DNA of 64,000 nt from Escherichia coli (GCF_011045215.1 NZ_CP049201.1); one strand, 5' to 3'. Positions 38,339-63,838 are shown, numbered from the stretch's first letter. Made by a program: numbers and translations. The notes: generated by a model from the letters alone, not told the origin.

Positions 38339-38340
38339 GA

Positions 38341-39714: not shown

Positions 39715-39717
39715 AAC

Positions 39718-41537: not shown

Positions 41538-41571
41538 GAAATTTTTCCGAAAAAAAACGCCGGTGCGGCGT

Positions 41572-42339: not shown

Positions 42340-42348
42340 CAAAAGAGA
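42340..42348. repeat. Left copy of 9-bp direct repeat CAAAAGAGA (putative att core)
   Basis: Identical 9-mer at 53493-53501; both copies sit in the same reading frame of the split gene. Confidence 0.5.
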
Positions 42349-42760: not shown

Positions 42761-43075
42761 TTAACGTCGTAACCGCTCCGGCTTCTTCCAGTGGTAAGTA
42801 ATTTTTTCTTTCTCCTGGTACATCTGCACGCGGCGACGGTATGACAACATCTCCAGAACTCTGGTGCGTATATTGCGCATATCCACGCCGTTAAGCTCAA
42901 TACCGTCACGGCGCATCACCTCAGCCACCACACGCGCGTAATTTTCGGCTATCACGCTGTCCGGCTGCGTGGCCTCCTGTTTGCCTGCTGGTGGTCTGAT
43001 TCCGGCAGCACGGCGAATCATTTTGAGCATTTCGGCTTCGGTCATTGTCATGGCCTCCGTGGTGATGGAAAACAA
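42761..43075 (-). CDS. Hypothetical protein downstream of element terS
   Basis: 104-aa ORF, no recognised motif; start uncertain (Met at 43075, 43051 or 43045). Confidence 0.4.
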   Translation of the reverse strand: MFSITTEAMTMTEAEMLKMIRRAAGIRPPAGKQEATQPDSVIAENYARVVAEVMRRDGIELNGVDMRNIRTRVLEMLSYRRRVQMYQEKEKITYHWKKPERLRR

Positions 43076-43310
43076 TGCCGTAATTGTGGCGGGTCCTTCC
43101 TGGAAAATGAAACACCGGGGGTGGCCATACGCGCAATTCTTAACTGTTTATGAAAATTTTTCGGGAAAAGTCAGATCCGTTCTTCTTCTCTGTAACTCAT
43201 TGTTTAATGGTAAAATCATCAAAAAAAGAAAGGATCTGGCAGTGGTCATTCTGGGCCCAAAATGACGTTATCAGATCCTTTCTCAGTTTTGTTCAATAAT
43301 TGCGCGGTTG

Positions 43311-43895
43311 TCACTCAGCTCTCTGTTGCCGTAACTTCTCCGGCACGTTTCCGGTTGTTTCCATCAGATAATCTTCCAGAATGCGGGGCAGGTTATCGGC
43401 AGTTTTAGCGCACGCATTACAGGCGCGTGCTGTTTCCCTCCTCAGGCCATCGATCATTGCCGGAGTCATCGCGGGAAACTGCCTTTGCATCGTAAGGGGC
43501 AAGCTATTCATGATGGTTGAAATCTGTTGCGCCAGTTTAGACAGTGCATACATACAAAAGCCGGTATCTATAACCTCTCCTGTCTCCCTGGCGTTCTTCA
43601 GTTCCTGCCCGTCAGCCTGTGCTTTAGTGAGACGGTATCGTTCGTACTCTGTTGTGCCTGGCTGTAAATCTGATTCACCAACGGCACGTAAATCATCAAG
43701 CTCACTGCGGAGTTTTTCTTTTTCGATCTCCTTCTCCCTCTGTACATACCATTCGATCACCTGTGAAGAGTCGAAAGTCACCTCCATACCTTTTCCGCCA
43801 CCAGATACATGGGGGAGCCCTTGCATCTGCCAACGTTCAATTGTGCGCGGATCAACACCGAAAATCTCTGCCAGTCTCTTTTTGTTAACATTCAT
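43311..43895 (-). CDS. Terminase small subunit, lambda Nu1-like (element copy)
   Basis: N-terminus MNVNKKRLAEIFGVDPRTIERWQMQGLPHVSGGGKGMEV resembles recalled lambda Nu1 winged HTH; C-terminal half similar to the prophage TerS at 62051..62560. Confidence 0.8.
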   Translation of the reverse strand: MNVNKKRLAEIFGVDPRTIERWQMQGLPHVSGGGKGMEVTFDSSQVIEWYVQREKEIEKEKLRSELDDLRAVGESDLQPGTTEYERYRLTKAQADGQELKNARETGEVIDTGFCMYALSKLAQQISTIMNSLPLTMQRQFPAMTPAMIDGLRRETARACNACAKTADNLPRILEDYLMETTGNVPEKLRQQRAE

Positions 43896-44039
43896 TTATC
43901 AAATCCTCATCAAAAACCACCTCCGACATGAAACGCCTGAAAAACGGGATTTTCCGGCGTTATGGTGTCGTATGTTTATTATAGTTAATTTAAATAAAAA
44001 CATAATGTTACATGCAAGAAGTACCGACATGCTTTTTCC

Positions 44040-44115
44040 CTGAAAAATTTTCATAAATAGTGAAAATCTGCGCGTCTGCCGCCCCGCGGTGTTTCTGATT
44101 CTGGAAAGGACCCGT
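44040..44115. other. Lambda-like cos site of the element
   Basis: GAAAAATTTTCATAAATAG ... GCGCGTCTGCCGCCCCGCGG ... GGAAAGGACCCG; reverse complement resembles the lambda cos junction (CGCTATTTATGAAAATTTTCC, GGGCGGCGACCT, GGGTCCTTTCC); about 185 bp upstream of terS. Confidence 0.6.
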
Positions 44116-44194
44116 GAAAATTGGGGCGATCACCACCGTTCCGGATACAAAAAAAATCGCGAGACCTTGCCAGCCTCGCGAACGTTCATTTCAG

Positions 44195-44620
44195 TTACTT
44201 AACAGACAGCAACAGCTTTTCATCTTCGGTCAGTCCGGCGTTGCCATCACCGGCTGCTGGCCCAACACATTTCGGGCTGTGCTTTTCCATGTACGCTTCA
44301 AACAGAAAAGCCGTTTTCTTTTCCTGCATCATTGCCTGGGCATCCACGGCAGCCAGTAACGTTTGTGCATAGGTTACTGTCATTACTTCAGAACCACACT
44401 CAATCAGCTTACTGGTGAACTCAGGGTATTTTGATGCCAGCGGTAACGCCTTGATACCCTCTATGCGCTGTTTATCACTCTCAGCCTTTGCAGTAAGCAC
44501 CGTTCGGGCTTCTGTCAGTGATGCGCCATTATTTGCGAGATTTTCCGCAAGCGTCGGGTATTTCTGCGCCTCAGGCAGTGCCATGATCAATGCTCTGGTT
44601 GAATTTGCTTTCTCAGTCAT
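44195..44620 (-). CDS. Hypothetical head-module protein (possible scaffold)
   Basis: 141-aa ORF between decoration-like gene and cos; no recognised motif. Confidence 0.45.
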   Translation of the reverse strand: MTEKANSTRALIMALPEAQKYPTLAENLANNGASLTEARTVLTAKAESDKQRIEGIKALPLASKYPEFTSKLIECGSEVMTVTYAQTLLAAVDAQAMMQEKKTAFLFEAYMEKHSPKCVGPAAGDGNAGLTEDEKLLLSVK

Positions 44621-44634
44621 AAATCACCACAAAA

Positions 44635-44964
44635 TTATTGCCCTAAAGGCTGCACGGAAATACCGGAACCAACAAAAGACGACACTTTTTTCTCGAACGT
44701 GTCCGCTGTATCAGGCCAGTTAATTTCATCGATATTAAAAACCCCGCACTTATAAACCTGTGCGCGGTTTTTTGTGGCCGTGTTAATGTCCGATATGGTC
44801 AGATACACCGCCTTACCGGGTGTACCGTCCCACTCAACCATCAGGCCCGCGCCGTTCTGCATCAGCGGAGTTCTCGCTTTAATTTCTCCGGCACTGGCAA
44901 AACAGGCCAGCGTGCTGACCAGTTCCTGCGTGCCGGAAAGGAATTGCGTGTAAGGTGTTGGCAT
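44635..44964 (-). CDS. Head decoration protein homologue (lambda gpD-like, element copy)
   Basis: RTPLM..VEWDGTPGKAV...YKCGVF..INWPD...FVGSGISV parallels the gpD pattern TPLM..VAWDG...YKSGTF...WP..AF.GTAIS. Confidence 0.65.
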   Translation of the reverse strand: MPTPYTQFLSGTQELVSTLACFASAGEIKARTPLMQNGAGLMVEWDGTPGKAVYLTISDINTATKNRAQVYKCGVFNIDEINWPDTADTFEKKVSSFVGSGISVQPLGQ

Positions 44965-44974
44965 ACGATCCCCT

Positions 44975-46030
44975 TTATTTCACTTCGACGGTAACAAAGC
45001 GACCAATATCCACGGGTACTGGCTGCGGGGCGCTGTGCGTCTGCACGTATTCAATCGCCGGATCGCCCGGTACGATATAATTTTTCGGGTAGTACATCCC
45101 CTCAGAAAATCCCTCGCGTGCCGCGTCCTGATCCATGATGGCACCATAAGCAACAAGGCCTTTATTTTCGGTATTGCCGAAAACCATCATGTTTTGTTTC
45201 AGGAAATATTGCTGCTGCCCGTTTTCGTCGTCATAACGACCGGAATAAACCACGATCGCCACATCACCGAGATACCCCTTGAAGCTGACAACGCCGCCCA
45301 AATCTTTTAGCGCAAGTTCAAGTGACGAGTTTGAACCGCGACGCGTGTCCATTAGTTCGCGGAATCGACGGAACGAGCGCAAAATACGCCAGGCTTCGCC
45401 ACCCATGACGATAATATTTACCGTACCTTCGGAAAAATCAGCGTAAGCCTCAATGTCGCTTATCGGATCAAACGTTTCGGCATCCTGTTTTGACCATTCT
45501 TTCCCGCCAGCCTGCGTAATATGATTGGTTTCGGGTAATCCCCAGTCAATTTCATAACGCTCAATGCCTTCGCCCTCAATAACGTTACGGCCTGTTGTGA
45601 TGGCATTGACCGCCAGCCATTCAACACGCGCTTTGATGGCAGCAAGCTGTTTTTTCTGGCTGTCGTGAACCATTTTTACGCGGCGTAGTGCCGGGGAAGA
45701 CTGACCATTGCCGATCTGTTCTCCAGGCATGCGCATGATTGTTTTGGTGGGATCAATAACGTGTTTGGGCTTCATATAACCCGGCGTGAACGTGTTCGTT
45801 GTGAAACCTTTGTCACGCATAACCTGGCTGCCTGACATTGGAGAACAAAACGGACTCATGACCACGTTTTCAATATCCAGCGTATCAAGTGCAATATCTC
45901 TGGTGCTGAAAGTAGCGACGTTCGGAAAGAACAACGTAGTAAAGAGTGGATTAAATTTAAATTCCGGCACATCTTCGCGCCCGATATTTTTCAGTAGCGT
46001 TGGTGTGCTTACCAGTTGCGGCGCTGTCAT
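44975..46030 (-). CDS. Major capsid protein homologue (lambda gpE-like, element copy)
   Basis: 351-aa ORF; TPGYMKPKH, NHITQAGGKEWSKQDAETFDP, KELMDTRRGSNSSLELALKDLGGVVSFKGY align with the prophage gpE at 55439..56467. Confidence 0.8.
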   Translation of the reverse strand: MTAPQLVSTPTLLKNIGREDVPEFKFNPLFTTLFFPNVATFSTRDIALDTLDIENVVMSPFCSPMSGSQVMRDKGFTTNTFTPGYMKPKHVIDPTKTIMRMPGEQIGNGQSSPALRRVKMVHDSQKKQLAAIKARVEWLAVNAITTGRNVIEGEGIERYEIDWGLPETNHITQAGGKEWSKQDAETFDPISDIEAYADFSEGTVNIIVMGGEAWRILRSFRRFRELMDTRRGSNSSLELALKDLGGVVSFKGYLGDVAIVVYSGRYDDENGQQQYFLKQNMMVFGNTENKGLVAYGAIMDQDAAREGFSEGMYYPKNYIVPGDPAIEYVQTHSAPQPVPVDIGRFVTVEVK

Positions 46031-46266
46031 TACTCACCCCCATGAGGCTGATTCATACCAAGCGCAGCGCGTAAATGGCTGCGTACCATCCAGCCGACTG
46101 ACGGCTTCACCAGGCACAACGGATCAAGGCCGATTTTTTTTCCTGCCTCTGCGTTCTCCTCAAAGCGCGCATTAAGTGCGGCGATAATATCGGGGCTGAT
46201 GTACACGGATACACCGCCCGGCTTCTGTGTTCCCATAAATGAGATTCCTCTTTGACTAAAAAACAA
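46030..46266 (-). CDS. Hypothetical protein upstream of capsid homologue
   Basis: 78-aa ORF, start uncertain; no recognised motif. Confidence 0.35.
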   Translation of the reverse strand: MFFSQRGISFMGTQKPGGVSVYISPDIIAALNARFEENAEAGKKIGLDPLCLVKPSVGWMVRSHLRAALGMNQPHGGE

Positions 46267-46457
46267 ACATAACGAAAAGTCATGTCATGATTTTAATTAT
46301 CGTTGCACTTTTTGCAATATAATTGACTATTGTTGCGAATAATGAAATCATTATGTCGTGGTTTTAATCCTTGTACCACAGAGTTGTTTAGCATTAATCA
46401 CGTTAGCGGCGTGAAATCCCCCGGAACCTCATCCCGGGGGATTTTTTTGCGCACAAA

Positions 46458-46482
46458 AAAGCCGGGAAAAATCCCGGCTTCT
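46458..46482 (-). terminator. Terminator after element ssb
   Basis: AGCCGGGA..TCCCGGCT hairpin followed by TTTTTTGTG on the minus strand, just after ssb stop. Confidence 0.5.
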
Positions 46483-46494
46483 GTCACTCGTTGC

Positions 46495-46917
46495 TTAAAA
46501 CGGTATTTCATCCCCGTACGGATCATCATTTCCCGCCTGTTGTTTTGCTCTGCTCAGTGCATCAGTAGCCTGCCCCTGTTGGCCTTTTTTGCCGCCCGGT
46601 CGCGCCGTTCTGGCACTGATTACACTGTCTGCGATAACCTGCCAGCTCTGCCGCGTTTCGCCGTTCTGGCCTGTCCACTGGCTTACCTGCATGTTACCCG
46701 CCACGCTCACCAGTTCGCCTTTGCGGTGTTTTGCCAGTGCGTCGGCCTGTCTGCCAAACGCCAGGACGGATAACCACATCGTCGCCGTTCCGTCATCTGC
46801 CTGGCTGCACGGCAGGGGAACCGCCATACTCGCCATCGCCATTTGTGTTCCCTTGCTGGTGGTCTTTAACTGCGGGTCAGCCACCAGCCGCCCGTAAGCT
46901 GCTATCTGTGCTGTCAT
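46495..46917 (-). CDS. Single-stranded DNA-binding protein (SSB-like) with acidic C-terminal tip
   Basis: 140-aa ORF; C-terminus ...NDDPYGDEIPF resembles the SSB tail ...DFDDDIPF. Confidence 0.7.
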   Translation of the reverse strand: MTAQIAAYGRLVADPQLKTTSKGTQMAMASMAVPLPCSQADDGTATMWLSVLAFGRQADALAKHRKGELVSVAGNMQVSQWTGQNGETRQSWQVIADSVISARTARPGGKKGQQGQATDALSRAKQQAGNDDPYGDEIPF

Positions 46918-47165
46918 GCTGTCTGCTCTCCGGTTTTAACGTTGATGGTTGTCACCTGTTCCGCTTCGGCAATCTCCCGCTCTGTCAGCGTGGCAAAGTT
47001 TGCCGCCGCTGTGGTCATGAATGCGCTTATCAGTTCGGGATGTGCTTTTGCGTATCCTTCTCCGGCATGGCGGTCTATTGTTCTGATTGCCACCTTTAAG
47101 GCGTGCTCTGTCATGTCTAACGCTTTATATTTTGGCGCTGTCTTATCTCTGGTTTTTTTGGTCAT
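46914..47165 (-). CDS. Hypothetical protein
   Basis: 83-aa ORF, ATGA overlap with ssb start. Confidence 0.45.
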   Translation of the reverse strand: MTKKTRDKTAPKYKALDMTEHALKVAIRTIDRHAGEGYAKAHPELISAFMTTAAANFATLTEREIAEAEQVTTINVKTGEQTA

Positions 47166-47370
47166 TTCTCACTATTCCCCACTTTTTCGCCTCACTTTTT
47201 AAGCTCCCAACATGATTTCCAACCTTGTTTTTTTGTGATTCTAATATGTTGTTTTTCAATGTGTTTTTTATTCCTCACTTTTGAGCCTATATACAGGTTG
47301 AAAAGTGAGGGGCGCGGTTGCTTTTTGTTCAGTTTCTGCTATCCCCTCACTTTTGTGCCTCACTTTTTAC
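47165..47370. repeat. Iteron array with AT-rich core (candidate replication origin of the element)
   Basis: CTCACTTTT at 47191, 47274, 47346, 47361 and inverted AAAAGTGAGG at 47301, flanking an AT-rich stretch (47225-47275), directly downstream of the helicase gene. Confidence 0.55.
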
Positions 47371-48782
47371 AGTGGGCGCACATCATCACCGTCAATAGTG
47401 ATAACGCCGTCTCTTTCCAGCTTGTACAGCCAGCGCCGAAAGTTTTTCATCTCATACCCCAGCTTTTTCATATCATCACGCAATAACGGGATAGTGCATT
47501 TATCGCCGCGCTGTGTGCGTGAACGGATACAGCCCCATAGCGCGGCGTGATTCTCCGTCTTGTTTCCGGCCTCCTCAATGCGCTCCAGTTCAACAGGTGG
47601 GCGCGGCTTATCCACTACCACCAGCGACGTGATTAACTCCTTGTCAGCGTCGATAAAAAGCTCCACCACGCGTAAATCGTATGCGGCCTCTTTCAGTTCC
47701 TCTGCGTCCTTCATTTTGGTGCAGGAGATAACCAGGGCTTCACTGTCTGCACCTTCCCGGCGAATACGGTATTCAGCGTCCAGAGATGCACGAAATGCAC
47801 TGGAACCACGCGCCCCCTTTGTTTCATCCTTGCCGGAATGGTGAACCACCAGTACCGTGGCCCCTGTGCGTCGTTTCAGTTCGTCACATCCACGGATAAA
47901 CGCCCCCATATCCCGCGCGTCATTTTCATCATTACCGCCAAAACACCGCGCCAGCGTATCCAGAATAATCATGCGTACCGGTTTACCCGTTTCCCTTTCA
48001 ACCTGGCGGGAAGCGATGACCATTTCATCAATATCAAACTGTGCTGCCGGAAAAATCGGGCGGTTTACCAGGTACAGATTTTTCACCCGTTCATCATTAA
48101 CGATTTCCCATGCTTTGATACGACGAGGGACACCAATGCCACCTTCACCGACGACATACATCACCGAACCATGCGCCACCCTGCGGCCTCCCCAGTGGCG
48201 ACCCGTGGCAACATGACACGCCCAGGAACACGCGAGGAATGATTTATAGGAACCGCTCGCGCCGTATGTGCTGCACAACGAATTAGCCGGAATCACGCCC
48301 TTAACGACATAATCAAGCTGTGTGTCGTACCCTGCAGATCCAATACTCATTGGTAGCGTGGTTTTTCGCTGGTCGTTTTTTTCTTCCTCCGGTATCTCTC
48401 CGGACCGTCTTTTCTGGCGCTCTCGTTCCAGATATTCGCGCCACCCCTCCCGCTTCTGGCTGTGCATTCCCTCAGGGTAATAATTCGCATCCCGTACACC
48501 TGCCGCTGCCAGCTTTTGCCCGATGGCATTAATATTTGACGGCTTGATGTGGCCTGCCTTGTACAGCCGGACACAATAGCGACCATCGTCGATAATTTTC
48601 AGGTCAGCCAGTTCGTCAAGATGGCTGTCTCCAAGCCATACAGGCGGAACATTGTCGCCAGCAAGTCGCCCGTCCTGCTCCTGCCATTGTTTCGCGTGCG
48701 CCCAGGCATCACTACCCGCAAAAATAATGACTTCGGTCATTTTGTCGTGCGGCTGTTTTTTTAAGTTCGGTGCCAGTTTCAT
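47367..48782 (-). CDS. Replication protein, RepA/DnaB-like P-loop helicase
   Basis: 471-aa ORF with Walker A GASGSYKS and RecA-like core; C-terminal winged-helix-like region. Confidence 0.7.
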   Translation of the reverse strand: MKLAPNLKKQPHDKMTEVIIFAGSDAWAHAKQWQEQDGRLAGDNVPPVWLGDSHLDELADLKIIDDGRYCVRLYKAGHIKPSNINAIGQKLAAAGVRDANYYPEGMHSQKREGWREYLERERQKRRSGEIPEEEKNDQRKTTLPMSIGSAGYDTQLDYVVKGVIPANSLCSTYGASGSYKSFLACSWACHVATGRHWGGRRVAHGSVMYVVGEGGIGVPRRIKAWEIVNDERVKNLYLVNRPIFPAAQFDIDEMVIASRQVERETGKPVRMIILDTLARCFGGNDENDARDMGAFIRGCDELKRRTGATVLVVHHSGKDETKGARGSSAFRASLDAEYRIRREGADSEALVISCTKMKDAEELKEAAYDLRVVELFIDADKELITSLVVVDKPRPPVELERIEEAGNKTENHAALWGCIRSRTQRGDKCTIPLLRDDMKKLGYEMKNFRRWLYKLERDGVITIDGDDVRPL

Positions 48783-49078
48783 TTTTTACCCCTGAATGCG
48801 TTAATCATGTTTTTCATTTTCTGAATGTTCGCCCGTGCCTTTGCGTTGCTGGTGGGCTGTTTGCATGGCGTGGCCTGTATCAGTGAAAAATCACGCCGGA
48901 ACTGATAAACAGGCATCACGCAGTCATAGCCGTACCCATCACGGCGGTAAGTAACGCACCGTCCCGCCACGCTTTTAATCGTTACCGTGCCGCCGTAGTT
49001 ATCCCGGAAAATATCGCCGGGGCGGATTTCAGGCCGAGCGGGGCCGCTGGCAGTAAAGCCAGAAATTTTCTGTTTCAT
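48779..49078 (-). CDS. Hypothetical protein
   Basis: 99-aa ORF, ATGA overlap with helicase start. Confidence 0.4.
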   Translation of the reverse strand: MKQKISGFTASGPARPEIRPGDIFRDNYGGTVTIKSVAGRCVTYRRDGYGYDCVMPVYQFRRDFSLIQATPCKQPTSNAKARANIQKMKNMINAFRGKK

Positions 49079-49286
49079 GGTTTTTATTCCTCTGCGCGGG
49101 TCTTGTTGTGTATTTCCATAACCGCGTTTAATTCATCAATAACCGGGGTTAACAGAGTGCTGAAAGCAGAAAATAAATCCCCCCCCCTGTTCGGCATGAA
49201 CTTCGGTTAATTTAATTAATACCGCTTTCATTTCCAGTGCCCGGTTTAATGCATTCTCAGAATGAATAAGAACATCGAAAGGGATT

Positions 49287-49520
49287 TTATCCATGGCTTA
49301 CATCCTCCGGGAATTTTCTTCTGTAACGCGCCTCTGCAACATATTCCGCATAGTCCGACGCAATATTGAGAATCTCCACACCCTCTGACCTGTAGCCACT
49401 GGTACTGATAAGAAAAAATGCGGCTTTCATCATGTCGGCAACGCATAACAACGCATCGCCTGTATGTTCCGGTGCGCCATCAAATTCCTGTTTCAGGGCA
49501 TTAAAACGATCATCACGCAT
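49287..49520 (-). CDS. Hypothetical protein (may be the 3' part of one gene frameshifted at a C9 tract)
   Basis: 77-aa ORF; begins inside poly-C/G tract 49523-49531. Confidence 0.3.
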   Translation of the reverse strand: MRDDRFNALKQEFDGAPEHTGDALLCVADMMKAAFFLISTSGYRSEGVEILNIASDYAEYVAEARYRRKFPEDVSHG

Positions 49521-49753
49521 AACCCCCCCCCATTTTCACAATCAGTAATCAGGATGGCTTTAGCCTCATTCAGTGCCATATCAGCACTAAATTGCATAAC
49601 AGCCAGTGAGTGAGGAACGAAATCCCCGGCATATTCTGTTTCGCTGGTGGCGTGCTTATGTGCCCTGTCCGCGATAACAGAAATATCAATCAGCGCGTGC
49701 ATCAGCGTTTTGATGGCTTCGGCGGCTGCGTCCTGACGGGTGTTATTGCACAT
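49493..49753 (-). CDS. Hypothetical protein (may be the 5' part of one gene frameshifted at a C9 tract)
   Basis: 86-aa ORF ending just after poly-C/G tract. Confidence 0.3.
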   Translation of the reverse strand: MCNNTRQDAAAEAIKTLMHALIDISVIADRAHKHATSETEYAGDFVPHSLAVMQFSADMALNEAKAILITDCENGGGLCVMIVLMP

Positions 49754-49949
49754 GGCGCACCTCCTGACGAATACGGGCGGCGAATACCATCACGCAGCCA
49801 TCAGGAGATTGCTGACGCGCTTCCTGTTCGTTGGTGGCCTCAATGGTAATCACGCGCGGTTGTGCCGTGCTCAGGGCGATAAAACGCCAGATGTATTTAT
49901 TCAGGTTGTGCGAGTCCCGCCCTTGCGGGTGTGTGGTATGATTTAACAT
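49743..49949 (-). CDS. Hypothetical small protein, divergent from the RHH gene
   Basis: Start taken at MLNHTTHPQ (ATG 49949, RBS GAGGTA); long upstream extension in ORF track rejected. Confidence 0.4.
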   Translation of the reverse strand: MLNHTTHPQGRDSHNLNKYIWRFIALSTAQPRVITIEATNEQEARQQSPDGCVMVFAARIRQEVRHVQ

Positions 49950-50043
49950 AGCTACCTCGATAATCTTGCTATCGTTGGTGGTTAGACGCCCTGCATGTGT
50001 ACCACCACTGCGGGGCGTTGCGTTTTTTGATGTGCACGTGTTA

Positions 50044-50088
50044 AGGTGTACACCTAACGAACCAAAACATAACGCCATAGGTGTACAC
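50044..50088. promoter_or_regulatory. Two palindromic operator-like sites GTGTACAC in a divergent promoter region
   Basis: AGGTGTACAC at 50044-50053 and 50079-50088, second abutting the RHH start codon. Confidence 0.5.
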
Positions 50089-50283
50089 ATGTCAACAGTT
50101 ATTAAGCGCGATAAAAAACAAAAAGGCACAGGAAAGGCCCCACCATTCCATATGCGTATAGTCCCTGAATTGAAGGAGCAGTTTGATAACGAAGCCAGTA
50201 ACGATGGAGTAAGTCTTGCCAACTGGCTTAAAGAGTTAGGGCGCAAAGAACTGCTACGGCGCGGAATTGAACCAAAGGGATAA
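50089..50283 (+). CDS. Ribbon-helix-helix (Arc/CopG-like) DNA-binding protein
   Basis: ORF track 49966..50283; start taken at MSTVIKRDKKQKG (ATG 50089); APPFHMRIVPELKEQFDNEASNDGVSLANWLKELGRK fits the Arc-type RHH pattern. Confidence 0.6.
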   Translation: MSTVIKRDKKQKGTGKAPPFHMRIVPELKEQFDNEASNDGVSLANWLKELGRKELLRRGIEPKG

Positions 50284-50340
50284 CTATCACTAATGTCGCA
50301 ACCAGAGGAGTTGCGACTCCGAAGATTACATAGGAAATTA

Positions 50341-50823
50341 ATGATTATGGGATTCGTCATTTTCATTGCGATCGTAATTTTATCCATTTACGTTCTTACC
50401 AAATTATTTATTTCAGAAAATTCACACGACAAAATTAGAGCCGAGGCATCCAGAAGAATTGCACAAGAAGAGGCCGAACGGGCTAAGTTGTATGAAGAGA
50501 GAAAGGAATCATCTGATAATCCTGTTAATAAACAAAAACGAATAACAACACACGAAGATCATTTTTATATGGATATTCATGGTGGTCACAAATATATATG
50601 TGTTGATGCTAAGTTAGTTTTTGAATATGCAAATTTAAAACACAACTATTTTCTTCACGCCTCTCACTATTTCCCTGAGTTAGAGTATGTTTATGGAAAA
50701 AACGAACATGGGAAAATAGTTAGAGTAGATTTGTACGATAAAAAAATTCAAGCTATTAACCCCGATACTGGCGAAAAAATACCTGGTGTGAGACGTTATC
50801 TACGACAGCACAAGATAAAATAG
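50341..50823 (+). CDS. AT-rich membrane-anchored protein of unknown function
   Basis: ORF track 50293..50823; start taken at MIMGFVIFIAIVILSIYVL (ATG 50341, RBS AGGAAA); single N-terminal TM helix; markedly lower GC than neighbours. Confidence 0.5.
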   Translation: MIMGFVIFIAIVILSIYVLTKLFISENSHDKIRAEASRRIAQEEAERAKLYEERKESSDNPVNKQKRITTHEDHFYMDIHGGHKYICVDAKLVFEYANLKHNYFLHASHYFPELEYVYGKNEHGKIVRVDLYDKKIQAINPDTGEKIPGVRRYLRQHKIK

Positions 50824-51238
50824 CCCACCGGAATTTTTTTCCGGTTACGCTTTGCCCACCAGCCGCAAATGTGGCATTGTTGGCTATGCTCATGCGTTGG
50901 GGATAACGCGCAATTAGTGTTGAAGGGCCACCGTAGCGGGTGGCCTTTGTTTTGCCTGTTATCCGGCAATTGTGGCGCTTCGCCACACGGTTGATATAAT
51001 CCTCCTGCACAGATTCATTTTTTGCGCAGCAGGTTAATTGTTCGCAAGGGCGCTCCGGCAACTGGGCGCTTTTTGTTTTTACCCACCAGCACAATAAAAA
51101 TCTTCATTTTCCATTTTTGCAAAATTTCATGCTTTCCGGACGACTGGCCATATGTCATTTTTTAGCAGAAGATTTTGCCTTGCTGGTGGGTAGCTTCCCG
51201 GTTAACACGATGTACCGTATAATCAGCACCGCACGCGG

Positions 51239-51820
51239 TTACTGAATACGCTCACCAAAGTAAAACTCAGGCTGATATTCACGTATCAGCCTTTTTTCTT
51301 CTTCCTCCAGCTCACGCTTTTTGCGCTTACATGCCTGTAGTTCCCTCCCCTTCTCGCTGGCACTTATCTGGTATTGCTCTTTGCGACGGGAAAAATCCTG
51401 TAATGCGCCCCACGGGATACCATAAGCCCCCGTTTTTCTGATACCCGGTATCACATTTCTGAATACCCAGTTACTGAAACGATGGGCGAACGTGCCAGGA
51501 GTAGCAGCTTTTCGACTTCTGGCAATCAGCTTGTAAAAACCAGATTCAGAAACGACGCTATGATTTGGATTTCCGCGAATACCGTAAGTTAAAGTTACGG
51601 TATTACTTTCATCATCATCCAGAGCTTGCAACGCCATGCGTGAATTAGTCAGTTCCAGCGCAGCGCAGACATCCTTTGCAACAAACCACGGATCGCCGTT
51701 CAGATACACCACGCGAACGTTCACACTATCAAAGCGCAGAACGACCAGATCACGAATATCACAGAATTTTTTCACTGGACGTGCGTCACCCTTGCCAGTC
51801 ACGGCAATATTTTTATTCAT
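51239..51820 (-). CDS. Bro-N domain protein (antirepressor-like)
   Basis: DIRDLVVLRFDSVNVRVVYLNGDPWFVAKDVCAALEL...GFYKLI..S....A..F..WV fits Bro-N. Confidence 0.7.
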   Translation of the reverse strand: MNKNIAVTGKGDARPVKKFCDIRDLVVLRFDSVNVRVVYLNGDPWFVAKDVCAALELTNSRMALQALDDDESNTVTLTYGIRGNPNHSVVSESGFYKLIARSRKAATPGTFAHRFSNWVFRNVIPGIRKTGAYGIPWGALQDFSRRKEQYQISASEKGRELQACKRKKRELEEEEKRLIREYQPEFYFGERIQ

Positions 51821-51870
51821 CGCTTTTTACCTCACATACAAAAAACCCCGCATTGCGCGGGGTATATCAA

Positions 51871-52080
51871 TCATTGACGATATTCATTAGCTTGTTTTCG
51901 TTGTCTTTCCAGCCACGATGCAACATCATCACGATGCCATGCGTTGCGTCGCCCAATCTTAAAGGGGCGTGGAAATTTATTTTTTTCATCATTCATGAAA
52001 GCGTAAAATGCACTCATTGCACCGTAGCGAAGCTCTGCCATCACGTCTTTGGTAAATAGAATATTGCCGTTAGTGCTCAT
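51871..52080 (-). CDS. AlpA-family regulator / excisionase-like protein
   Basis: 69-aa ORF immediately downstream of integrase, HTH-like core. Confidence 0.65.
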   Translation of the reverse strand: MSTNGNILFTKDVMAELRYGAMSAFYAFMNDEKNKFPRPFKIGRRNAWHRDDVASWLERQRKQANEYRQ

Positions 52081-52086
52081 ATTGCC

Positions 52087-53319
52087 TCACATATTCACTA
52101 CTTTTAGCCCCTGATGACCACCAGAACGACGGATAATTCCCTTTCTGGCATCATCAACAAAATCACCAATCCATTGCATCATGATCTTACGTTGCTCAAA
52201 ATATTTTGAGCGATTATAAATATCACGAATAGCATCGCCGCTTTTATGGGCTAATGCTGCCTCAATAACATCTGGGTTAAACCCTTCTTCGTTGAGTAAC
52301 GTACTCCACATAGCCCGGAATCCGTGGGCAGTTGCAATACCATAAAATTGTCCATCTTTGAAACACTTATGACGCAACACGCTTGATATAGCTTTCCCCG
52401 GATTCTTTGGAGAAAAAAATATATAGCTACCACATTTTATTTTATTCATTTCATTTAAAATATCCACGGCTTGCCGTGAAAGCGGAACTACGTGTTCACG
52501 TCCACACTTCATTCTTTCAGGGGGAATTGTCCAGATACAATTTTCTAAATCAATTTCCTCCCATTTTGCCTCCCTTGCTTCACATGGTCGTACCATAGTG
52601 AAAATCTGGAACAAAAGAGAGCATCTTATAGAGATATTACTTGTAGTATCCCACCAGTTCAAAAATTCTGATAACAGTTCAACTGGTAATGCCTTTAATG
52701 GGGTATGTTTTTTTGTTGCAAATGCATTTCTTATTGTTGATAGCGGGTTATTTTTAATTACTCCAGAGTTAACACAGTAATTCATTATTTCATTAATTTT
52801 TGAAATAATTTTATCCAATACAGAATTACGATCAGAAAATTGATTAAGCAATGGTATGACCACAGGCGCGGTCATATCATGTATGTACACATTTCCAAAT
52901 ACAGGGATTATATGTCTGTTCAATAACTCTTCTATTGTCTGTAAAGTCGACAGTCGCAAATCACCTTTTTTCTTAAAATTAAACCATTCAATTGCAATAG
53001 CACCAAACGTCTGTAAGTGCTTTCTTTTAGCCTCGAGTCGTTTTTCTGCCCGGTATGATAACGGATCTATATCCCGTGCCAACAATCTGCGCAGATTATC
53101 GCGTTCTTCTCTGGCTTCAACCAGCGTGAAATCGGGGTATCGCCCTATAGTGTATGTTTGCCGCTTCTTCGTAAAAGGTTGTACATAACGAAAACGCCAC
53201 GATTTACTACCGGCTTTTGACACATAAAGCAAAAGCCCAAACCCATCATATAGAGCGTAATCTTTCTCTCGTGGCCTGGCGCTTTTTACCTCTGATGCAG
53301 TAAGAGGCTTCACCGACAT
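52087..53319 (-). CDS. Tyrosine recombinase, P4-type integrase
   Basis: ORF track 52087..53418; start taken at MSVKPLTASEVKSARPREKDYALYDGFGLLLYVSKAGSKSWRFRY (ATG 53319); C-terminal catalytic region with HGFR and Y. Confidence 0.85.
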   Translation of the reverse strand: MSVKPLTASEVKSARPREKDYALYDGFGLLLYVSKAGSKSWRFRYVQPFTKKRQTYTIGRYPDFTLVEAREERDNLRRLLARDIDPLSYRAEKRLEAKRKHLQTFGAIAIEWFNFKKKGDLRLSTLQTIEELLNRHIIPVFGNVYIHDMTAPVVIPLLNQFSDRNSVLDKIISKINEIMNYCVNSGVIKNNPLSTIRNAFATKKHTPLKALPVELLSEFLNWWDTTSNISIRCSLLFQIFTMVRPCEAREAKWEEIDLENCIWTIPPERMKCGREHVVPLSRQAVDILNEMNKIKCGSYIFFSPKNPGKAISSVLRHKCFKDGQFYGIATAHGFRAMWSTLLNEEGFNPDVIEAALAHKSGDAIRDIYNRSKYFEQRKIMMQWIGDFVDDARKGIIRRSGGHQGLKVVNM

Positions 53320-53492
53320 ACAAGCACTCCAATACAAATTTTTTCTAGTCCATGCGCTGGTTCCTTTTGCCAGAATACTGGCGATAAAAAAGCGAAAAAC
53401 AAGGAACAATGCACACAATGAAAAAACCGCAACTTATTGAATAAGAAGAAAAACAAAAAGAAACGGTAACGAAAGATAATGATTGCATAGTC

Positions 53493-53501
53493 CAAAAGAG
53501 A
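53493..53501. repeat. Right copy of 9-bp direct repeat CAAAAGAGA (putative att core)
   Basis: Identical to 42340-42348; about 170 bp from the integrase start. Confidence 0.5.
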
Positions 53502-53898
53502 CACGGAAAACGATGTAGTCGTCCAGCAGTCGGTCGAAGGTATCCACCTCAGCATCAATAAAAACCGCCGGATCAACGTTATCCAGCCCGAACGTGGCTC
53601 CATCAATCCAGTCAGATAAATCCATTGCCAGACAGCGGGCAAATATCTGCGGTTTTGGCACGTTTTCCGTCTTTCCGGCCCGATCAGTCACCACAAACAG
53701 ATCGCATTTCAGCGTGACCCGTGTCTGCCCGTCGGCAAACTGAGCCTTGTCCCAGCCGGGTACATCCACAAACACGGCAGGCGTCACCAGTTGCGTCACT
53801 TTTTCCGGGTACTCATCGGCATCTTCCACCCAGGGAATTTGTTTCAGACTGTCAATCACTGCCTGATGCCAGGTTCCCATCATCAATGGTTCCATCAT
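53501..53898 (-). pseudogene. 5' fragment of the split tail-completion gene
   Basis: ORF 53434..53898 reads a coherent protein to ...DDYIVFRVSF then a hydrophobic nonsense tail (GLCNHYLSLPFLFVFLLIQ) encoded by element sequence; frame at the junction matches the fragment at 42179..42339. Confidence 0.55.
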
Positions 53899-54617
53899 TC
53901 CATCCCCTTAAATACCCGGAATTTCAGTTCATGCTCAAAATTTTTCAGGATCAGTGCTTCCGCATCAGGGAAAACAAAATCCTCTATACGGTTCAGCATG
54001 GCTTCATAAATATCAATTTCCGCTTCGCGCACCCTTCGTCGTCCGGATGCCTGCCGGACCAGTACCGTCTTACGTCGTGAAATGCGTCCGCGCCGGTTTT
54101 CAGACTCAAACTCATTAACAAAAGCCTCGTCACCTGACCAGGTGGTGACCGGTATTGCCTCCCCGGCGGGCTTAAAACGTATCTCCGGCGCTTTCCTGCG
54201 ACGGGAAGCCGGTGCAAAACGCCCCCGTTCATCACGCAGCTGATGGCGTTCACCGCGTCGCCCCCCACTGATGCGTCCGCGCAGATCACGCACTTTGATG
54301 GCGTTCAGGCCGAACCACACCTTTACCTCATCAAACTCATCGCCATTTCGACGAATGATAAAAGCATTCAGGACACGTTTTTTGATCATTTTCTGGCTGC
54401 GTGGCGCAACCTGTTTTTTAAACTCTGCCATGGCCTTCATCCGCAGTGCGGACGCGGCTCTTTTCAGCGCCACGCCCCAGGCTTTACGGATCTGGCTTTT
54501 TGAACCACCCAGTTTAGCGATAATTTTCAGCACATCATCCTCGTCAATATCGACGACGAGGTTTCGTGCCAGCCGTCGCTGCCGGACAGTGCTTCGTTCA
54601 TGCTCTCTGACTGTCAT
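53895..54617 (-). CDS. Putative head-tail joining / virion morphogenesis protein
   Basis: ORF track 53895..54677; start taken at MTVREHERSTVRQ (ATG 54617); between FII-like and tail-completion genes; family not recognised. Confidence 0.45.
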   Translation of the reverse strand: MTVREHERSTVRQRRLARNLVVDIDEDDVLKIIAKLGGSKSQIRKAWGVALKRAASALRMKAMAEFKKQVAPRSQKMIKKRVLNAFIIRRNGDEFDEVKVWFGLNAIKVRDLRGRISGGRRGERHQLRDERGRFAPASRRRKAPEIRFKPAGEAIPVTTWSGDEAFVNEFESENRRGRISRRKTVLVRQASGRRRVREAEIDIYEAMLNRIEDFVFPDAEALILKNFEHELKFRVFKGME

Positions 54618-55005
54618 AACGTTTACTCGGTCGGACAGGGGCGGCGGGTGTACTTCTTCCGGGTTCTCCCCGCGCAAGAGTAATGGTAATCACACCATGA
54701 CCCGCAGTGCCTGACTCATCCCAGCCAGGATCGACCACCTGGTAGGGTTCGCCGTGGATCATGACCCTGTCATATTTTTTCAGTCCGGCAACCCATGCGC
54801 TCCGGGTAAATAACACCGGTGCAGTATCACGAATTTCGCCGCTGCCAGTGTTCATCCCGGTGTTATCTGCCGGGGCATCAAAAACAGCACGGATTTTTCT
54901 TTCCGTGCCGCCCGGATATATGCTGATTTCCGTCCCCATCGTATCCAGGATGATGTCATCCGCATCACTCATGGCCTGATCGAACAGATTATCGGACATC
55001 ATCAC
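54598..55005 (-). CDS. Head-tail joining protein (lambda FII-like)
   Basis: 135-aa ORF; NLFDQAMSDADDIILDTMG resembles recalled lambda FII N-terminus; ATGA overlap with FI. Confidence 0.65.
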   Translation of the reverse strand: MMMSDNLFDQAMSDADDIILDTMGTEISIYPGGTERKIRAVFDAPADNTGMNTGSGEIRDTAPVLFTRSAWVAGLKKYDRVMIHGEPYQVVDPGWDESGTAGHGVITITLARGEPGRSTPAAPVRPSKRYDSQRA

Positions 55006-55388
55006 TCCCGGATTTTTTCTGCCAGACCATCCGCCAGCAACGCAGGAACTGTGGCTTCATTAACCAGCACAACACTGGAGGCCCGGGCGAACATCAACAT
55101 TTTGCCCGTCACCGCATCACGGGACGGCATATGTGCCGTTTTCAGCATGCGCACCCGAACGAGTCCCCGCTCAGAATACACCTCATTACGGGCATCCCCT
55201 CCGGATGCATCACGCTGTTCATCATGCACATCATCCTGTTCTGTCCCTTCCCCATCGAATCCGGCGGCCTCCTCTTCCCATTCCGCCAGGCGCTGTTCAA
55301 GATCGGCTTTTGAACCTGAAATATCTGCTTCACGCCCCAGAATCTCTGCCAGCTCCTGCAGGCGTTCAGTCATCTGCTCTTTTGTCAT
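55002..55388 (-). CDS. DNA packaging protein (lambda FI-like)
   Basis: ORF track 55002..55520; start taken at MTKEQMTERLQELAEILGREADISGSK (ATG 55386-55388); resembles recalled lambda FI. Confidence 0.65.
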   Translation of the reverse strand: MTKEQMTERLQELAEILGREADISGSKADLEQRLAEWEEEAAGFDGEGTEQDDVHDEQRDASGGDARNEVYSERGLVRVRMLKTAHMPSRDAVTGKMLMFARASSVVLVNEATVPALLADGLAEKIRE

Positions 55389-55438
55389 CACATTTCTCCC
55401 GTGCGATAAAGAAAAAGGCGGGAATATCCCGCCTGACC

Positions 55439-56467
55439 TTATTTCACCTGAACCACCACAAACGCGTCCGGATCCGGCAACACCATCAACGGCGCAGACT
55501 GCGTCATGGTATATTCGCACCCCGGGTCCCCCACCTCTAACCAGTGTTTCGGATAACGAATTGCAGAGGTGATCCCTTCACTCAGCGCCTGGTTATCCTG
55601 GATTGCGCCATAACAACGGACACCCTCCACCTGAGTGTTTCCAAGAATCAGTGTGCCTTCCGGCAGATAACGCTGCTCATCCCCGTTTTCATCAACATAC
55701 GTTGTTTTCGCCACCATGATGGCCAGATCACCGTAATAACCTTTAAAAGAAACCACGGAACCCAGATCTTTCAGCGCGGTTTCCAGTTCAGATTTTGAGC
55801 CACGGCGGGTATCCAGTTTTTCACGAAACAGCTTAAAACCGTTCAGCATACGCCAGACAGTACCGTCCATAATCGCAATATTGATGGTACCGGAAGCAAA
55901 ATCGCAGTACGCATCCAGATCATGCGTCGGATCAAAGGTGTCAGCATTCTGTTTTGACCATTCGCGTCCCCCTGCCTGCGTTATGTTATTGGCGGCAGAA
56001 CGTCCAAAATCCACTTCCACCGTCTCAAACTGTTCACCGCTCATGGTGTACTTACCCTGCAGAACAGCGCTGACCGCCTGCATTTCTTCCACCTGCACAA
56101 TCGCCTGCTCTTCCTGTTTCAGGTTATCAGTCAGAATACGCAGGCGACGGTAGGCCGGGTCATTAAGACGGGCCGGATCTTCCCCCGGAAGACGCTCCAC
56201 CGCCTGCTGATAATCCAGCCGGTGTTTTGGTTTAACATAGCCGGGGCGTAACACGCGGGTTTCACCACCACGACTGCGCAGTACCTTACCTGACACAACC
56301 GGAGACACATATGCCGCAACCGGTGTTTTTCCGGTGATTTTATCCAGCATCACTTCCTGAGTATGGAAAGTGACCGTACGACGAAAAAACAGCTCCAGAA
56401 ACAGCGCACGGAATTTCACTTTCTGCTCGGTGTAGCCGAGCAACTGACGCGTGGTAAATAACCCCAT
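55439..56467 (-). CDS. Major capsid protein (lambda gpE-like)
   Basis: ORF track 55439..56506; start taken at MGLFTTRQLLG (ATG 56467, RBS GGAAAG); long stretches match recalled lambda E (PIVSG.V.RSRGG, PGYVKPKH, VEEMQAVSAVL.GKYTM.GE.F, KLDTRRGS.SELETA.KDLG). Confidence 0.9.
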   Translation of the reverse strand: MGLFTTRQLLGYTEQKVKFRALFLELFFRRTVTFHTQEVMLDKITGKTPVAAYVSPVVSGKVLRSRGGETRVLRPGYVKPKHRLDYQQAVERLPGEDPARLNDPAYRRLRILTDNLKQEEQAIVQVEEMQAVSAVLQGKYTMSGEQFETVEVDFGRSAANNITQAGGREWSKQNADTFDPTHDLDAYCDFASGTINIAIMDGTVWRMLNGFKLFREKLDTRRGSKSELETALKDLGSVVSFKGYYGDLAIMVAKTTYVDENGDEQRYLPEGTLILGNTQVEGVRCYGAIQDNQALSEGITSAIRYPKHWLEVGDPGCEYTMTQSAPLMVLPDPDAFVVVQVK

Positions 56468-56537
56468 AATTGACTTTCCTTTAAAAACACAAACGAACCG
56501 CATCACGACCCGTTTTTTTCAGTTAATCACTTCACCA

Positions 56538-56873
56538 TCAGGCGTGGCTGATGGCACTTCCCACAAACGCGTTGGCTTTTTTCACCGCATCCACCGAATC
56601 CGGCCAGACCAGCGATTCGGTGGCAAACGTACCGCTTTTGTAGTACGTCAGTGTGGGCTCGGTCCCGGCCAGCGCCAGTGCCAGTACCCCCACAGCCGTT
56701 CCGGCTTTCTGACCATCCCATGCCACCAGTTTTCCGCTGGCGTCATCCAGCATCAGTGGCGTCAGTGAAGGCGTGGCAACACTGATACCGCTGGTACCTG
56801 TTGCGGTATACACCGGATCGCTTCCGGCAAAAATGCGCCCGTCCGCACGCTTTTCTGTGGTGGTTTTAATCAT
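56538..56873 (-). CDS. Head decoration protein (lambda gpD-like)
   Basis: ORF track 56538..56903; start taken at MIKTTTEKRADG (ATG 56873); TPLMLDDASGKLVAWDG...YYKSGTF...WPD matches recalled lambda D. Confidence 0.85.
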   Translation of the reverse strand: MIKTTTEKRADGRIFAGSDPVYTATGTSGISVATPSLTPLMLDDASGKLVAWDGQKAGTAVGVLALALAGTEPTLTYYKSGTFATESLVWPDSVDAVKKANAFVGSAISHA

Positions 56874-56913
56874 TTTCTCAGTCTCCTGATTTATCTGAAT
56901 CACGGATCCCCGC

Positions 56914-58395
56914 TTACGGCATACTCATCAGCAGTTCTTCTTCCCCGTTCCCGGCAGTTCCGCCACCGGAAACGGCACTGGCGGCATGCTGTGCCATGAA
57001 GCGCTCAAAAAGTGTTACCTGTGACGGTTGCGATACTGATGGCGCAGCTGCCAGCAGTGTTTTCGCCTGGTCCACTGTCATTCCCGGCTGTTCAGCCAGC
57101 GCCTGTGCCAGTTTTTCGCGTCCTTTTGCTTCCGGAAGTGCCATTATCTGCTCGCCGGTACTTGCCGCACCGGTTGCCGGTGCCGCTGCCAGTAACATTT
57201 TCGCCTGTTCCACCGTCATTCCCGGCTGTTCAGCCAGCGTCCGTGCCAGTTGTTCACGCCCTTTTGCTTCCGGAAGTGCCACAATCTGATCGCCAGTACT
57301 GTCAGTACCGGCAACCGGTGCCGCTGCCAGTAACGTTTTCGCCTGCTCAACTGACATTCCCTGCTGACCTGCCAGCATCTGCGCCAGTTTTTCGCGTCCT
57401 TTCGCCTCCTGACAATTCAGGATCCCCATCACGCGCTGATTTTCCTGGGACACCGCTTCAGCAACGGTGAGATTTTTTGTTGTCATCGTATTCTCCTGTG
57501 TAACAGAGTCGTTCAGAGCAGAAACCATTACATCAACGGCATCTGCAGCATTAATCAGTTGATCAGCCAGGCCTGTATCAATGCCTGCCTGACCGTCATA
57601 AACGGCAGCCTCGGTATTCATCACCACCTCTGAACTCAGCCCCGTATAAAGTGCCACCTTGTCGACAAACATCCGGCGGGCCTCATCAATACGGCGCTGA
57701 AAATCCGCACGCACACCTGTCGGCAACGCCTGAATACTGTTGCCGTCAACCTTGTGCTGCCCGGAGTAAATCAGCGTGATATCCACCCCTTCCTGTGCCA
57801 GTTGTTTCTCATAACTGATGTGCGCCATCATCACACCAATCGAACCAATTTTTGCCGTCTGCGTGACCAGCCGACGCGTACAGGCTGCCGCCAGCAACAT
57901 GGCGGCTGAACAGGCCATGTCATTACACAGCGCCCACACGGGCTTCTGTTCCCGCAGACGGTAAATCATGTCAGCACAGTCAAACGCCCCGGCAGCCTGA
58001 CCGCCAGGACTGTCGATATCCAGCAAAATACCGCGCACATCCGGATCATTCACCGCCAGCTGAAGACGGGCGGTAAGACCGTCATAGCCTGTCATGCCAG
58101 AGTAAGGCCTCAGGGTACCCATTTTATGTACCAGCGTGCCGCTCACCGGCAGAATGGCGATGCCATTTTTCACCTGATAGCATTTTTCAGGACGCCGGCC
58201 ACCAGACATATAGTCCGCCACCGCCAGTTGCATACCGTCGGCATCAAGCTGAACATCCAGTTGCGGAACGGAAAGACTGCCCGCCCCCATCTCCTTACCC
58301 AGCGCGCAAAAGAAAACCCGCGCATAGGCGGGTTCCAGTAAAAGCGGTTCATTAAATGCCATGGCGGCAATATGCGATAAATTACGACGCATCAC
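56914..58395 (-). CDS. Head maturation protease / scaffold (lambda gpC-like, S49 peptidase) with triplicated C-terminal repeat
   Basis: N-terminus ...NLSHIAAMAFNEPLLLEPAYARVFFCAL matches recalled lambda C; C-terminal region has three tandem copies of an ~46-aa unit. Confidence 0.85.
   Translation of the reverse strand: MMRRNLSHIAAMAFNEPLLLEPAYARVFFCALGKEMGAGSLSVPQLDVQLDADGMQLAVADYMSGGRRPEKCYQVKNGIAILPVSGTLVHKMGTLRPYSGMTGYDGLTARLQLAVNDPDVRGILLDIDSPGGQAAGAFDCADMIYRLREQKPVWALCNDMACSAAMLLAAACTRRLVTQTAKIGSIGVMMAHISYEKQLAQEGVDITLIYSGQHKVDGNSIQALPTGVRADFQRRIDEARRMFVDKVALYTGLSSEVVMNTEAAVYDGQAGIDTGLADQLINAADAVDVMVSALNDSVTQENTMTTKNLTVAEAVSQENQRVMGILNCQEAKGREKLAQMLAGQQGMSVEQAKTLLAAAPVAGTDSTGDQIVALPEAKGREQLARTLAEQPGMTVEQAKMLLAAAPATGAASTGEQIMALPEAKGREKLAQALAEQPGMTVDQAKTLLAAAPSVSQPSQVTLFERFMAQHAASAVSGGGTAGNGEEELLMSMP
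57040..57406. repeat. Tandem repeat, about 138 bp x 2.7, inside the gpC-like gene
   Basis: Protein units EAKGRE(K/Q)LA..LA.Q.GM(S/T)V(E/D)QAK.LLAAAP...STG.QI.ALP repeated; DNA motif ...GTGCCAGTTTTTCGCG..TTTTGCTTCCGGAAGTGCCA recurs at about 138-bp period. Confidence 0.7.
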
Positions 58396-60159: not shown

Positions 60160-60162
60160 CCT

Positions 60163-63821: not shown

Positions 63822-63838
63822 CGCGTGATAACTAAAAA

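Follow-up and report, generated by a model that had tools for sequence, protein, structure and literature searches.

A candidate small-RNA gene at the convergence zone of an EcCICFT073-like satellite island embedded in an Escherichia coli prophage

The P4 CI, C4 and isrK modules put an RNA brake on early, replication or antirepressor genes of satellites or phages; they use short complementary boxes and are processed from the leader of the operon that they control, on the same strand. In the sar-ant system of P22 and the OOP-cII system of lambda, a short, constitutively made RNA with its own terminator is directed against a regulatory operon; sar overlaps the ribosome-binding site of ant, and OOP overlaps the 3' end of cII. 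The Hfq-type small RNAs, such as Esr41, AgvB/AsxR, Pas and IsrK, are encoded by short intergenic genes on mobile elements and transcribed from sigma-70 promoters; they possess a conserved unstructured stretch immediately followed by a Rho-independent terminator with a long U tail, and are patchily distributed among strains. For the Gram-negative PICIs, no master repressor is known, and AlpA, required for the induction of EcCICFT073, is known only as an activator (PMC6092414). One AlpA of Pseudomonas is a processive antiterminator (PMC7969949).

Here we describe a candidate small-RNA gene, termed M2, in a 415-bp non-coding gap (positions 50824-51238) that forms the convergence point of two opposing PICI operons in a 64-kb window, which is the whole stretch of E. 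coli DNA that was analysed. Like the P4 CI, C4 and isrK modules, two of which (C4 and isrK) are found in the same satellite family as M2, the locus would provide an RNA brake and has short motif copies that may be complementary boxes; unlike them, M2 would stand as a gene of its own, convergent and located downstream of bro. It would resemble sar and OOP in being short and constitutively made, in having its own terminator and in lying against a regulatory operon, next to a Bro-network (antirepressor-type) gene. However, the overlap of M2 is confined to the 3' untranslated region past bro (past alpA in relatives), so that any effect would concern read-through, the processing of 3' ends or transcript stability, and not the initiation of translation. 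M2 also shares the anatomy of the Hfq-type RNAs: its gene would be short, intergenic and carried by a mobile element, with its own sigma-70 promoter, a conserved unstructured stretch, a U-tailed Rho-independent terminator and a patchy strain distribution, and an unstructured arm of 40 nt followed by a terminator hairpin is the usual build of base-pairing small RNAs. It has no sequence or model match to them, and in contrast to the Pas RNAs, which occur in lambdoid prophages and phage genomes, the gap sequence has no phage match. Identity of M2 with Esr41 or Pas was considered and rejected, Esr41 being located in SpLE1 and Pas in lambdoid prophages and phages.

The trp region of the window shares 98.9% identity with E. 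coli, which places the DNA in Escherichia. The element that carries the gap is an EcCICFT073-like Gram-negative PICI embedded in a helper prophage, as established by Pfam matches and by its flanks, which are prophage late genes (baseplate genes on one side and head genes on the other). Its minus strand encodes an integrase (52087-53418), an AlpA-like HTH protein (alpA, 51871-52080), a Bro-N domain protein (51239-51820; Pfam, 1.2e-17) that is convergent with a plus-strand operon, an Icd-like protein (icd, domain within 49743-50387; NF033153, 1e-18) and an AAA_25 RepA-type helicase (47367-48782; Pfam), in addition to DUF4222, SSB, a lambda-E-type capsid protein, a decoration protein and a Nu1-type small terminase. 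The earlier note on this DNA had drawn a parallel to P4-type satellites, but the element is not of this type, as the replication protein is of the AAA_25 RepA type and no CI or C4 match lies in the element. The zone order matches the four-zone scheme of integration, Bro, replication and late zones described for Gram-negative PICIs (PMC10111431), and E. coli relatives are annotated with the architecture int-alpA-(bro)-gap-convergent small genes-icd-rep as well. Exact att direct repeats of at least 12 nt were not found at the presumed satellite ends, so that the boundaries are only approximate (about 42.4-53.5 kb), and no lambda-like cosN was found in the gap or the satellite. A strong minus-strand intrinsic terminator (51845-51863) directly follows alpA in the 50-nt interval before the Bro-N gene, and expression of Bro-N therefore needs its own promoter or antitermination. 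In relatives, the int-alpA RNA motif (RF02996) lies between int and alpA (L081 5004-5071, minus strand; L225 820-887, plus strand); it had no match in the satellite of the window at the gathering threshold.

The plus-strand operon lies between the Bro zone and the icd-replication operon, and consists of an unannotated 43-aa ribbon-helix-helix (RHH)-like ORF (50152-50283), in the position of YlcI/YnfO of relatives, and a 176-aa accessory gene with one hydrophobic helix (50293-50823), a position occupied by other genes in related satellites. The 43-aa ORF had no Pfam match and the 176-aa gene no family match. The RHH-like ORF may encode a repressor of the satellite. The promoter of the icd operon (TTGACA-18-TATGTT; 50040-50095, minus strand) is divergent from this ORF and bracketed by the inverted repeats GTGTACACCTA / TAGGTGTACAC, which together with the RHH-like ORF look like a repressor-operator pair for the replication operon.

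The gap is flanked, as the earlier note had described, by the one-helix 176-aa protein gene on the plus strand and the Bro-N gene on the minus strand, and reading of the sequence recovered the elements that the note had placed in it: a hairpin CCGGAATTTTTTTCCGG (50828-50844), a hairpin with a T-run AAGGGCCACCGTAGCGGGTGGCCTTTGTTTT (GGCCACC..GGTGGCC; 50923-50953) and three copies of a motif, two as CCCACCAGC (50855-50863 and 51082-51090) and one as GCTGGTGGG (51182-51190), all read on the plus strand. Missing from that description were two plus-strand terminators (51046-51080 and 51269-51298), an extended -10 element (50992-51000), the Chi octamer within the motif, and the role of the second and third motif copies as the outer arms of a hairpin of 113 nt. 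Terminator-like sites are enriched about three-fold in the region 49400-52200 (8 versus 2.8 +/- 2.1 in shuffles), and six of the eight lie inside the gap or at its edge. The three good ones, termed T1 (50923-50953), T2 (51046-51080) and T3 (51269-51298), all face the plus strand only and, judged by their sequences, possess the stem and T-run of intrinsic terminators. Their stems are preserved through compensatory change, as seen for T2 from pair counts and for T1 from stem replacement. On the minus strand, the strong terminator at 51845-51863 is followed further on only by one weak hairpin.

The gap sequence is shared by 752 of the 5426 complete E. coli genomes searched and by 2 plasmid records, compared to 0 matches among 50,697 phage records; 155 satellite contigs were added from two pattern scans of IMG/VR. 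A genome-contig scan with the 17-mer AGGTTAATTGTTCNCAA gave 70 chance matches in unrelated phyla and none in an enterobacterial species representative. The 10,790-bp E. coli plasmid record NZ_CP148328.1, which contains the 5' block of module M1 (see below) at 2124-2161, is probably an excised circular PICI that was assembled as a replicon.

BLAST coverage of the gap in relatives breaks at fixed points, and the segments between them combine differently across loci (presence or absence in 166 loci); the gap was therefore treated as four modules, M0 to M3. M0 is the 7-bp hairpin CCGGAATTTTTTTCCGG at 50828-50844, just past the stop codon (z = -3.4 on the plus strand), which the terminator scan lists as a weak terminator for minus-strand transcripts and which few relatives possess (9 loci). 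M1 (about 50849-50955, plus strand) begins right after the stop codon of whichever plus-strand gene comes last, and comprises a 32-nt 5' block TTGCCCACCAGCCGCAAATGTGGCATTGTTGG (50852-50883) that is nearly invariant in the family and includes a minus-strand Chi octamer (50856-50863), a variable middle, and T1, the intrinsic terminator of the plus-strand operon, with which the module ends. The T1 stem is swapped whole in relatives (GGGCCACC/GGTGGCC versus GGCGACC/GGTCGCC and others); such whole-stem replacement is typical of a 3'-UTR with its terminator, and M1 appears to be that of the plus-strand operon. M2 (50956-51080, plus strand) is the small-RNA gene candidate, and M3 (51081-51238) accompanies this Bro-N allele.

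The predicted promoter of M2 contains a perfect extended -10 element (TGnTATAAT), TGATATAAT, at 50992-51000 on the plus strand, which is the only one on either strand of the 64-kb window and stands 46 nt upstream of the T2 stem. Transcription is predicted to start near 51007 and to end at T2, which has an 11-bp stem followed by TTTTTGTTTTT, giving an RNA of about 75 nt (about 51007-51080). The 5' 40 nt of this RNA are unstructured, with an invariant 24-nt core, GCGCAGCAGGTTAATTGTTCGCAA, at 51024-51047. RNAalifold found no conserved structure in the 5' half, and a 5' hairpin of the MFE fold was rejected, as it lacks covariation support and is dropped by RNAalifold. Because of its poor -35, the M2 promoter is missing from the output of a scan for hexamer pairs, and the promoter call rests on the extended -10 together with its conservation. 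The spacer of the promoter carries a palindrome, GTGGCG-CTT-CGCCAC (50972-50986), which in some relatives is swapped for another one, TGGTC-ATTTC-GACCA, and may serve as an operator.

Comparison of M2 alleles revealed two other promoter types in relatives, TTCACT-17-TATAAT and TTCACA-17-TAAAAT, and all three types stand at a near-equal distance (46-49 nt) from the terminator, with the first 30 nt of the transcribed part unrelated between them. In an alignment of 29 representative alleles, the positions that never vary are concentrated in two places, the -10 and the core GCGCAGYAGGTTAATTGTTC, which immediately precedes the terminator. In the T2 helix, 92.8% of cells are paired, compared to no more than 71% after sliding of the partner columns; the helix has one A-U compensatory pair and a second stem allele (GGCGGCTCC/GGGGCCGC), and its covariation is slight. 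The unit lacks an ATG start codon, and none of the ORFs that run through it is conserved or credible. The constant distance between promoter and terminator across alleles and the lack of a conserved reading frame are both features of a stand-alone small-RNA gene. A covariance model built on these M2 alleles detected a single copy in every positive locus; it scored 106.5 bits in the window, had matches in 32 of 67 additional satellite loci (L170-L236), and reached 113.6 bits in EcCICFT073, an E. coli PICI that has been studied by experiment (CFT073 1,380,005-1,380,093, minus strand; L239 9006-9094, minus strand). M2 is conserved as a unit in hundreds of related satellites, EcCICFT073 included, a conservation that partly reflects shared descent, since most homologues are 90-95% identical.

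Searches against described RNAs returned nothing comparable. With Rfam 15, no match above chance was found in the gap at the gathering threshold or at E <= 10, and there was no match to Esr41, AgvB, AsxR, IsrK or STnc100; the terminator look-alikes that appeared at E <= 10 (ctRNA_p42d, isrD and MicX, 16-20 bits) are at chance level. The literature searched for the core sequences gave no match. A scan for trans targets over 29-64 kb, covering the satellite and the helper prophage, found no convincing target of M2: the best non-self match (39831-39870, plus strand) falls on the non-coding strand of a late gene, and the scores are within chance for 7000 windows. Altogether, the sequence evidence makes M2 a good candidate for a well-formed small-RNA gene of EcCICFT073-type PICIs that is new and unclassified. 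The idea in the earlier note that the gap could encode a regulatory RNA gains support from a complete promoter-to-terminator unit, while the parallel to P4-type immunity RNAs drawn there finds no covariance-model match.

In EcCICFT073 itself, alpA is separated from two convergent small genes by an “empty” 528 bp that contain M1 and M2, and a small unannotated ORF with a Bro-N-like look is situated between alpA and M2. The published picture of transcription in one direction only in these islands overlooks this convergent cassette. No PICI was found at 235-284 kb of CFT073.

We favour, with modest confidence, a reading of the gap as a modular convergence zone in which M2 would supply a constitutive RNA directed against int-alpA-bro transcription, with an antisense or insulating role in regulation. 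M2 would be transcribed constitutively in the lysogen from near 51007 under the extended -10 at 50992-51000, and its RNA would end at the Rho-independent terminator at 51046-51080 with the conserved core left single-stranded. Leftward read-through from alpA and bro would cross M2 and M1 in antisense, because the good terminators of the gap act on the plus strand only, then the RHH cassette, and would enter the icd-replication operon in sense. The M2 RNA would be fully complementary to any transcript running from alpA/bro into the icd-replication operon, and the stream of polymerases from its presumably strong promoter would oppose leftward transcription. Together with the adjoining terminators, which act on the plus strand only, M2 may thereby shield the two operons from each other and reduce the leakage of leftward transcription, through antisense pairing or transcriptional interference. 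Against read-through from alpA stands the strong terminator that follows this gene, which means that antitermination or a separate bro promoter would be needed.

An antisense or interference barrier that helps to keep the island silent would be the simplest reading of this arrangement. A trans-acting role of the Hfq type would fit the anatomy, with a core beside a U-rich terminator, equally well.

A possible second antisense RNA (51218-51298, plus strand; z = -3.1) is outlined at the end of the Bro-N gene by a perfect TATAAT (51218-51223) and the strong terminator T3 (51269-51298), which lies within the last codons of Bro-N. There are 2 variable sites in the last 60 nt of bro versus about 19 in the next 120 nt, and the synonymous sites at the 3' end are unusually conserved. 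That this unit gives an RNA antisense to the 3' end of Bro-N is suggestive only.

A bolder extension holds that M2, perhaps with the 3'-UTR RNA of M1 and the antisense RNA at the 3' end of bro, represents a third and undescribed kind of satellite immunity RNA, which we consider rather unlikely. If it were true, a constitutively made convergent antisense RNA would block AlpA-driven and possibly antiterminated transcription from leaving the integration/Bro zone and passing through the repressor cassette into the icd-replication operon, and M2 would set the induction threshold of EcCICFT073-type PICIs. In any case M2 is accessory and not a core immunity function, because about a quarter of the related satellites lack it and others have only its 3' half.

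The same gap might consist of nothing but transcription ends, that is, stacked one-way terminators and 3'-UTRs which separate the convergent operons, with the M2 promoter incidental or its transcript functionless. The three plus-strand terminators in series would be expected from this, and the failure to find a trans target for M2 agrees with it. In some relatives, such as L007, M1 alone is enough, and in others only the 3' half of M2 is present, promoterless and fused to the start of M1, so that core and terminator would there end the transcript of the plus-strand operon. Such an account leaves unexplained, however, why three unrelated promoters keep a good -10 at one spacing from the terminator, why the 24-nt core is invariant in alleles whose 5' parts differ, and why the M2 promoter has the only perfect extended -10 in 64 kb, and we regard it as rather improbable.

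The motif copies could also act as DNA, either as Chi sites (for RecBCD control or as recombination hot spots) or as binding sites of a satellite protein, with the mosaic borders of the gap as the result of recombination at them. Chi sites are usually treated in connection with chromosomes, red gam mutants of lambda and rolling-circle plasmids. An exact Chi octamer, GCTGGTGG, is part of the motif, and CCCACCAGC is Chi on the other strand; the gap thus holds three exact octamers in 415 bp, in both orientations (50856-50863, minus strand; 51083-51090, minus strand; 51182-51189, plus strand), which face outward around 51091-51181 and for which a RecBCD role is putative. GCTGGTGGG occurs 5 times in 64 kb versus 0.43 expected, with three of the five in the gap. 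Chi is frequent throughout the satellite (10 in the 11.1 kb of 42400-53500, or 0.9/kb) compared to the chromosomal part of the window (0.34/kb) and to the helper prophage, where none was found in 23 kb (29600-42400 and 53500-64000). Across 155 related satellite loci (L082-L236) it reaches 0.93/kb, about four times the average of the E. coli genome, and outnumbers by a wide margin the others among the 168 permutations of its letters. The literature searched held nothing on Chi in PICIs or on Chi enrichment beside a Chi-free helper prophage. The combination of a Chi-rich satellite with a Chi-free helper hints that satellites, unlike helpers of the Gam type, rely on Chi against or with RecBCD.

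The motif copies stand at module borders, namely at the start of M1, at the junction of M2 and M3 and in fused variants, and two of them are located in the stem of M3. RNA folding, which the earlier note had proposed for both strands, revealed M3 as a long hairpin of 113 nt (51080-51192) with z = -4.8 on either strand. Its outer arms, TACCCACCAGCA (51080-51091) and TGCTGGTGGGTA (51181-51192), contain one Chi octamer each, its inner arms are AAAATCTTC and GAAGATTTT, and its centre is A+T-rich with a conserved core, TGCTTTCCGGAC, at 51130-51141. Given this placement, at module borders and in the M3 stem, the copies may be markers of recombination junctions or sites for RecBCD control instead of boxes for RNA pairing. 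On the other hand, M3 travels with this Bro-N allele and motif copies 2 and 3 occur only with the Bro-N cassette; only the first copy, in M1, is general in the satellite family. Moreover, part of the local Chi peak is ascertainment, as a retrieval pattern included the motif, and a role as DNA leaves the promoter and terminator units unexplained. We hold this reading unlikely; it would be compatible with the favoured one rather than exclude it.

A coding origin of the gap is highly improbable. According to this explanation, it is a decayed minus-strand protein gene, the “Icd-like protein, missing C-terminus” of PGAP labels in E. coli, as indicated by pseudogene calls over the homologous stretch and by database proteins called “icd-like protein, partial” that match its translation. 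The longest ORF of the gap (112 aa; 50756-51094, minus strand) has no NCBIfam match, however, and the Icd-like model NF033153 misses it while matching the genuine icd gene (49743-50387). The 46 homologues of the ORF are near-identical entries between 62 and 194 aa long, from Escherichia with a single one each from Klebsiella and E. albertii, and only one of the 46 has a Pfam domain, which is AlpA and presumably stems from an upstream gene. Relatives of the gap show single-base indels and variable stops, and the long “Icd-like” ORFs of relatives are translated isrK/C4 leaders that are dissimilar to the gap. A second minus-strand peptide, starting at 51158 (MTYGQSSGKHEI...) and encoded across M3 and M2, was rejected, as it has no Shine-Dalgarno, varies in length from 13 to 100 aa and shows mostly non-synonymous variation; its first 13 codons recur in three alleles. 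The statement in the earlier note that the gap has no credible ORF is thus upheld. Because the Icd-like model misses the gap and the homologues are near-identical entries, one of them with a Pfam domain, the “Icd-like” pseudogene label over the gap is an annotation artefact.

That the gap encodes an immunity RNA of the P4 CI or P1 C4 type, with the motif copies as its seqA, seqB and seqC pairing boxes, is barely credible and has been largely refuted, because the covariance-model searches are negative in the gap. C4/isrK RNAs have been reported in the Bro zones of some Gram-negative PICIs (PMC10111431), and base-pairing inside a single transcript could occur between the inverted and the two direct copies of a 9-12-mer. 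Yet the models for isrK (RF01394) and for the P4 CI and P1 C4 RNAs of Rfam clan CL00128 (C4 and c4-a1b1, RF01695 and RF03163), a check for known satellite immunity RNAs named in the earlier note, had no match at E <= 10 in 49000-52500, whereas C4 and isrK reach 75-80 bits in relatives. There they are situated in the icd leader (L081 1630-1815, minus strand; L093 1837-2022, plus strand) and not in the gap. The icd leader of the window (49900-50060) has the same leader ends without the RNA insert of roughly 330 nt, and no C4/isrK RNA was found at 49950-50060. Likewise, no homology of the gap to the icd leader was detected, neither to that of the window nor to the C4-bearing one of L081, and the gap does not occupy a leader position, as it sits downstream of bro and is set apart from icd by the convergent operon. 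Two direct copies and one inverted copy of CCCACCAGC are present as possible pairing boxes; copies 2 and 3, however, are specific for the Bro-N cassette, which leaves a single copy that is common throughout the family.

Two further observations concern these RNAs outside the gap. In L081, the long “Icd-like” protein of 215 aa is the translation of the isrK/C4 RNA region. In the window, c4-a1b1, isrK and C4 matches of 49-78 bits were found at 28972-29173 (plus strand), at the end of the helper prophage near yciE/yciF and beside an ORF6N gene, which is a Bro-network gene; this is the antisense-RNA immunity module of the helper prophage itself and is unrelated to the gap.

The analysis of this short region corrects a recurrent annotation error, in which an “Icd-like pseudogene” is called over non-coding DNA. 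That the satellites are rich in Chi and the helper prophage is devoid of it is relevant to the way in which satellites deal with RecBCD. For the silencing of Gram-negative PICIs, M2 and the RHH-like gene provide two concrete candidates for the missing negative control, and the presence of M2 in the model island EcCICFT073 raises the value of the find.
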